Below, piece by piece: positions 285 through 500 of a DNA stretch of 64,000 bases. The DNA lies in NCBI RefSeq assembly GCF_054482595.1, contig NZ_CM137008.1, one strand, 5' to 3'. The notes below the pieces were generated by a model that saw only the letters and a list, made by a program, of their open reading frames with translations, was not told where the DNA came from and made no database searches. The number at the start of each line of letters is the position of its first letter. The stretch's first letter is position 1. The position numbers and the translations under genes were made by a program.

Positions 285-318
285 TTTTAATCATCCTGGT
301 TAAGCAAATTTGGTGAAT

Positions 319-331
319 TGTTAACGTTAAC
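319..331. promoter_or_regulatory. Putative LacI-family (CscR) operator, palindromic TGTTAACGTTAAC, copy 1
   Basis: Palindrome with CG core in the cscA–cscK divergent intergenic region; identical copy 64 bp downstream. Confidence 0.4.
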
Positions 332-382
332 TTTTATAAAAATAAAGTCCCTTACTTTCATAAATGCGATGAATATCACAAA

Positions 383-395
383 TGTTAACGTTAAC
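383..395. promoter_or_regulatory. Putative LacI-family (CscR) operator, palindromic TGTTAACGTTAAC, copy 2
   Basis: Identical 13-bp palindrome repeated in the same intergenic region; TGTGA CRP-like half-site nearby (about 406–410). Confidence 0.4.
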
Positions 396-500
396 TATGA
401 CATTTTGTGATCGAATATGCATGTTTTAGTAAATCCATGACGATTTTGCGAAAAAGAGGTTTATCACTATGCGTAAGTCAGATGAATTTAAGGGAAAAAA

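Follow-up and report, generated by a model that had tools for sequence, protein, structure and literature searches.

The intergenic region between the divergent genes cscA and cscK of the sucrose locus of Escherichia coli carries two copies of the same short palindrome, which raises the question of what these boxes are for, which protein reads them, and whether their arrangement as a pair at a given distance has a role of its own. The stretch of DNA analyzed here, referred to as the window, comprises 64,000 nucleotides of an E. coli chromosome. Its opening 1,500 bases match strain XH990 at 100% identity and are found in 2,663 of 5,426 complete E. coli genomes, and the remainder is ordinary E. 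coli core chromosome, which starts with argW, yfdC, mlaA and fadL and extends to ackA-pta and lrhA. Both boxes are most probably bound by CscR, a sucrose repressor of the LacI family whose gene lies to the left of the window, and would serve as its operators, a reading to which a probability of about 0.9 can be assigned.

The csc regulon is the sucrose route of E. coli W and of engineered production strains, in which the strong repression of these genes when sucrose is low poses a practical problem that is usually removed through either the deletion of cscR or the mutation of an operator. The exact positions of the operators and CRP sites are useful both for strain engineering and for the design of sucrose-responsive switches. 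For basic biology there is nothing new in this reading, since, as later papers relate, the literature has contained the pair of operators, the operator mutation and the dependence on CRP since 2002.

The original prediction had placed the boxes in a divergent intergenic region of roughly 215 bp between cscA and cscK, and positions 286–500 do in fact make up 215 bp, bounded by the ATG of cscA (285–283, minus strand) and that of cscK (501). The flanking genes are cscA on one side and cscK followed by cscB on the other (Table 1), with the NCBIfam profile matches of both cscK and cscB lying above the curated cut-offs. The regulator, which had been presumed to be a LacI-family protein encoded beyond the window, was found there as well, given that a LacI-family CDS (cscR; WP_001301925.1, 331 aa) lies approximately 1.15 kb beyond the left end of the window, convergent with cscA, at L001:2849–3841 in the window's own locus. 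Every match of CscR in NCBIfam is a LacI-family model, and its protein cluster carries the LacI helix-turn-helix domain (Pfam PF00356) together with the sugar-binding domains PF13377 and PF00532. For a close homologue, named in its database entry only as "Transcriptional regulator", the structure has been solved (PDB 6ndi chain A, 334 aa, E = 1.3e-113), which could serve to model the binding of both the operator and the inducer by CscR.

Table 1. Features of the csc promoter region and adjoining genes, in window coordinates.
Feature	Position	Strand	Sequence and details	Basis
cscA, 5' part (sucrose hydrolase, invertase)	1–285	-	ATG 285–283	RefSeq annotation (E. coli XH990, identical sequence)
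Box 1, cscA-proximal putative CscR operator	319–332		TGTTAACGTTAACT; palindrome 320–331, centre C325/G326	
Candidate cscA -10 elements (weak)	338–333; 344–339	-	TATAAA; TATTTT	Relaxed hexamer scan
CRP site 1	365–380		TGCGAtgaataTCACA; between the boxes, 2 nt from box 2	9/10 core positions
Box 2, cscK-proximal putative CscR operator	383–396		TGTTAACGTTAACT; palindrome 384–395, centre C389/G390	
CRP-like site 2	406–421		TGTGAtcgaatATGCA; 9 nt from box 2; contains TGTGA 406–410	7/10 core positions
cscK (fructokinase)	501–1415	+		ORF list; NCBIfam NF006957, 505.7 bits (cut-off 450)
cscB (sucrose:H+ symporter, oligosaccharide MFS transporter)	1487–2734	+		ORF list; annotation; NCBIfam TIGR00882, 592.8 bits

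The two boxes are identical over 14 nt and share a 17-nt common stretch with one mismatch, and their core, GTTAACGTTAAC, is a perfect 12-nt palindrome formed by two tandem GTTAAC hexamers, with CG in the middle. They had been described as identical copies at 319–331 and 383–395, and both do read TGTTAACGTTAAC at these positions. The accompanying description of a perfect 13-bp palindrome with a CG core is right about the CG centre but not about the length, because a 13-mer cannot be a perfect palindrome and the 12-mer core is the one that is. The distance of 64 bp is likewise correct from start to start, whereas the gap between the two 14-mers is 50 nt.

The window contains no other exact copy of this 14-mer, and no copy appeared in any of 100 dinucleotide-preserving shuffles of the window, against the two copies in the window itself. 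A search for sites within one mismatch of the 14-nt consensus, TGTTAACGTTAACA, also returned no further site in the 64 kb. Two looser matches to this consensus were considered and rejected as operators, namely TGTTAACGATAACG at 54941–54954, which has two mismatches and lies inside the pta coding sequence, and GGTCAACGTTAACT at 5620–5633, which has three and lies between the convergent mlaA and a yfdF-like ORF. Both are at chance level, with about 0.2 sites expected per 64 kb at up to two mismatches and more at three, and neither lies in a promoter.

In a survey of LacI-family motifs, a central CG was present in 1173 of 1303 cases, the motifs were 16–22 nt long, and the operators lay 30–140 bp upstream of the start codons (PMC4052901). 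The csc boxes have a conserved core of 14 nt with weaker symmetry out to 20 nt, and their centres are found 40 bp from the cscA ATG (box 1) and 111 bp from the cscK ATG (box 2), both of which fall within the range of the survey. An even palindrome with a central CG, a cognate regulator gene in the locus and a phylogenetic footprint, which are features of LacI/GalR operators, are all present here. Together with the position of the boxes and the presence of the pair in 66 of the 80 loci of other species in which a CscR relative is encoded, they support the view, put forward from the window alone, that this is the architecture of a LacI/GalR-family operator pair.

The phylogenetic part of this evidence had to be sought across genera, given that, in each of the 2,662 complete E. 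coli genomes that carry csc, the identity of the cscA–cscK intergenic region is 95% or higher, which makes a comparison of strains within the species uninformative. Accordingly, 80 loci were collected from one-genome-per-species contigs of the Enterobacterales and of the Orbaceae genus Gilliamella, each with a CscR relative of 52–96% identity, the loci having been fetched using an alignment of CscR with 12 homologues of 54–79% identity. When these loci and the window's own were scanned for TGTTAACGTTAACA (81 loci, 1.15 Mb in total), 155 sites with at most one mismatch were observed against 0.18 expected, and 132 of them were in promoter pairs. The comparison among csc-positive strains that had been suggested as a check thus yields a nearly invariant region in E. 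coli and, across genera, a box pair in the 66 loci mentioned above (67 of 81 when the window is counted), where the positional homologues of the boxes have between zero and two mismatches to a consensus that is itself a perfect 14-mer palindrome.

The pair always heads the operon that contains cscA, even though the order of the genes varies among loci, with layouts that include cscR-cscA | cscK-cscB (E. coli, Pluralibacter), cscR-cscA-MFS | ... and cscK-cscA-MFS | cscR. At least one box was found near cscR in every one of the scanned loci whose contig reaches the promoter, the contig ending before it in three of the 81 (L006, L009 and L024). On the side of the protein, the N-terminal helix-turn-helix region of CscR is largely invariant among the 12–13 relatives of 54–79% identity, including M16, T17, S19, R20 and other residues, and this invariance is in keeping with that of the operator core, TAACGTTA.

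These same data bear on the idea that the boxes have no regulatory role in csc, and would instead have arisen by chance duplication of GTTAAC (HpaI) sites in tandem, be left over from recombination or from a mobile element in the vicinity of argW, or be bound by another LacI-family protein, such as Cra or TreR. The location lends this idea some appeal, since csc adjoins argW and a DUF4942 gene fragment at a known integration hot spot (PMC11251922), and direct repeats can recombine, as illustrated by a strain that has lost exactly one 64-bp period (Trh52, described below). It is, however, difficult to reconcile with boxes whose sequence and position next to cscR relatives have been retained in many genera and under several gene orders, although the DNA around them has diverged, with the excess of observed over expected sites, with the presence of a box in every locus that reaches the promoter, and with published operator mutations that derepress csc. 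A non-regulatory origin is effectively refuted by the conservation data, and it is given next to no probability here.

The DUF4942 fragment, which is 50 codons long, and the tRNA-Arg gene (argW) beside it are found just downstream of cscB, at window positions 2814–2966 and 3176–3250, and the fragment looks like the remnant of an integrated element, in line with the location of csc at the argW hot spot of recombination and integration (PMC11251922). In E. coli O84:H7 strain Trh52 (L085:1468–1618), the intergenic region measures 151 bp rather than 215 bp, with one box left and with both CRP site 1 and the presumed -10 and -35 elements of cscA gone, a loss that resembles recombination or slippage between the two direct repeats. 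Coverage of the intergenic query fell below 80% in at most 5 of the 2,662 genomes.

There are other departures from the common layout. A single perfect TGTTAACGTTAACA box lies between cscA and cscK in six loci, five of Providencia (L017, L020–L023) and one of Moellerella (L025), from which it follows that the pair is not strictly required in every lineage and that the two-operator layout is not universal. The Gilliamella loci (L037–L058, at about 6823–6856 in each) have, in addition to a pair with a 57-bp spacing at cscA, a second, overlapping pair only 14 bp apart, GTTTAACGTTAACA and TGTTAATGTTAACA, between the MFS transporter gene and cscR, which suggests that in these bacteria the transporter is controlled separately and cscR regulates itself.

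The spacing of the main pair, considered over the 67 loci that have it, is 64 bp in 39 loci, 63 in 13, 62 in two, 57 in nine Gilliamella and 69 in four Proteus, so that 52 of the 67 (51 of the 66 from other species) have centres 63–64 bp apart. As this corresponds to approximately six helical turns, so that the two sites would face the same side of the helix, and as the promoter and a CRP site lie between the boxes, it is conceivable that a CscR bridge from one box to the other closes a 64-bp loop around the cscA promoter and CRP site 1, with both boxes needed for full repression. This is considered unlikely, given that the Gilliamella and Proteus spacings are both about half a turn out of phase and that Providencia has one box. 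The protein also speaks against it, since CscR (331 aa) aligns to positions 6–330 of the 358-position NCBIfam LacI profile and would thus be without the LacI-type C-terminal tetramerization segment, although bridging by means other than a LacI-type tetramer is conceivable. A loop of 64 bp would, moreover, be very tight without a bending protein, and conservation of the intervening promoter and CRP elements accounts for the constant spacing equally well.

A column profile of the 39 sequences with the 64-bp spacing (38 of the fetched loci and the window) has four conservation peaks, that is, box 1, a GATGTTAATCAC block that corresponds to CRP site 1, box 2, and a TG.GATC...ATCA block that corresponds to CRP site 2, and the DNA between these peaks is unconserved. 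The sites were scored by their match to the ten core positions of TGTGA-N6-TCACA, for which 1.3% of control windows reach at least 8/10 and about 9% reach 7/10. The original prediction had pointed to a TGTGA half-site just downstream of the boxes; while TGTGA does occur at 406–410, it belongs to the weaker of the two sites, and the main one is CRP site 1, between the boxes. The left half of the latter reads TGCGA rather than TGTGA in the window, and the divergent E. coli allele (L002) differs here. The homologues of CRP site 1 have a core score of at least 8 in 53 of the 67 loci, and a CRP-like site is found at a gap of 2 nt from box 2 in 52 of them and of 3 nt in the nine Gilliamella loci.

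As for CRP-like site 2, the window's copy on its own has a score that chance also gives (7/10), but a CRP-like site is present at a gap of 9 nt from box 2 in 50 of the 67 loci and scores 8–10/10 in 36, with TGTGAcagaaaTCACA in a Yersinia (L012) and TGTGAtcgaaaTCACT in a Serratia (L033) as examples. In Yersinia, Pantoea and Serratia (L012, L029, L033–L035) the palindrome of this site is almost perfect. Both E. coli alleles have a degraded right half (ATGCA or AGGCA versus TCACA), and the site takes the form TGAGATCGCGATCAA where cscR is the divergent gene. In Rahnella bruchi (L019), the CRP-like site to the right of box 2, TGTGATATTCATCGCA, is the exact reverse complement of CRP site 1 of the window, TGCGATGAATATCACA, which may reflect either coincidence or an exchange between the two sites.

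Given this, box 2, CRP site 1 and CRP-like site 2 may tentatively be viewed as a conserved three-part module of about 60 bp, with gaps of 2 and 9 nt, in which CscR and cAMP-CRP might compete or cooperate directly, so that a single repressor dimer would gate the activation by CRP of both divergent promoters, a reading of fairly low probability. The spacing of this module is fixed across most of the Enterobacterales that have a cscR relative. As the literature consulted mentions one putative Crp site only, a description of the second site, or of the three elements as one module, may be new.

Another form of interplay is also conceivable, in which the main role of CscR at box 2 would not be to block RNA polymerase, and it would instead interfere with, or be held in place by, cAMP-CRP at the flanking sites, in the manner of CytR at deo. 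In its favour are the fixed gaps on both sides of box 2 and the expected footprints of the proteins, which would abut or overlap, together with the reported dependence of the csc genes on cAMP-CRP (PMC11251922, PMC3938415). Nevertheless, the second CRP site is at chance level in the window, and box 2 is a full, high-quality palindrome that, unlike the weak operators of CytR, should bind its repressor unaided. The two CRP sites are 41 bp apart from centre to centre, with box 2 between them, as against approximately 52–53 bp in CytR systems. Overall, this mechanism is regarded as quite improbable.

A scan of positions 200–600 for sigma-70 promoters and terminators at standard stringency found nothing, and neither the standard nor the relaxed hexamer scan found a consensus-like -10 element in the direction of cscK. 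Promoters that depend on CRP usually lack a sigma-70 promoter of consensus grade. Activation by cAMP-CRP is in line with this lack of a good sigma-70 consensus promoter in the region. In the direction of cscA, the relaxed scan gave two weak candidates (Table 1), either of which would place the start of cscA transcription at about 326–332, within box 1 or at its border. Relative to such a start, CRP site 1 would be centred near -40.5 or -46.5. The candidate start agrees with the published description of a downstream operator that overlaps the cscA start and a Crp site that adjoins the -35 element (PMC11251922).

The reading of both boxes as CscR operators leads to a simple scheme. When the inducer is absent, one CscR dimer would occupy each 14-bp palindrome. 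At box 1, which would span the start region of the leftward cscA promoter, the repressor would block RNA polymerase, while box 2, beside the CRP sites, would control the rightward cscKB promoter and probably help to repress cscA too. Both divergent promoters would be activated by cAMP-CRP, and at high sucrose CscR would be released through an inducer. Which box serves which promoter, where transcription starts and how many dimers bind are inferred details of this scheme.

Much of this scheme has precedents. Jahreis et al. (2002, J Bacteriol 184:5307), as cited in PMC11251922 and PMC3938415, described a 12-bp inverted repeat that occurs twice between cscA and cscK, a putative Crp site adjacent to the -35 element of cscA, and a derepressing point mutation in the cscKB operator that permits growth on low sucrose. 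Later work on E. coli W yielded the same mutation once more (PMC3938415). It would be assigned to box 2 rather than box 1, going by the name of the operator. Both the CscR-dependent repression and the cAMP-CRP dependence of the csc genes are also on record (PMC11251922, PMC3938415), as are the overlap of the downstream operator with the cscA transcription start and the conservation of the csc regulatory elements in five species (PMC11251922, 2024).

The operators are termed putative in both PMC11251922 and PMC3938415, and direct binding of CscR to the boxes (by EMSA, footprint or ChIP) was not found in the literature searched, in which the work of Jahreis (2002) and Sabri (2013) is represented through PMC11251922 and PMC3938415. 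A search of published full text for gttaacgttaac matched only unrelated cloning primers. The boxes of the window are the operator pair described in 2002, and their identification is correct, ordinary and already known. What is added to the literature is modest, namely the widening of the conservation from five species to 80 loci in about 30 genera, with a fixed spacing, and the second CRP-like site.

Finally, the arrangement can be set beside other systems. The csc loci of E. coli EC3132 and E. coli W, as described by Jahreis in 2002 and related in PMC11251922 and PMC3938415, have the same element as the window, with no essential difference in what these papers relate. The scrY promoter of pUR400 and Klebsiella is organized in a similar manner, with two 14-bp inverted repeats (the ScrR operators O1 and O2) that bracket the -35 and -10 elements, the downstream repeat overlapping the start and a CRP site lying upstream (PMC11251922). 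ScrR, the LacI-family repressor of the sucrose PTS, belongs to a different orthologous group from CscR, with another motif (PMC4052901), and its inducer is known, either fructose or fructose-1-phosphate, whereas that of CscR is still unknown according to PMC3938415. The scr promoter is also unidirectional, whereas csc is divergent.

The gal operators OE and OI likewise resemble csc, as a dimer of the LacI/GalR family there acts through two operators, one of them upstream and adjoining the CRP site (-41.5), and the other downstream of the promoter, and repression involves both. On the other hand, the gal operators are 113 bp apart, require HU for looping and include one, OI, that lies inside galE, whereas the csc boxes are 64 bp apart and both intergenic, and looping of the gal type is disfavoured in csc by the 57- and 69-bp spacing variants. 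The likeness to lac O1 and O3 is in the primary operator near the start, the auxiliary operator upstream, the CRP site between or beside them and the palindromes suited to a LacI-family helix-turn-helix. LacI forms a tetramer through a C-terminal helix, which CscR lacks, and the lac operators differ from each other in both sequence and strength and are 92 bp apart, whereas the csc boxes are identical and separated by 64 bp.
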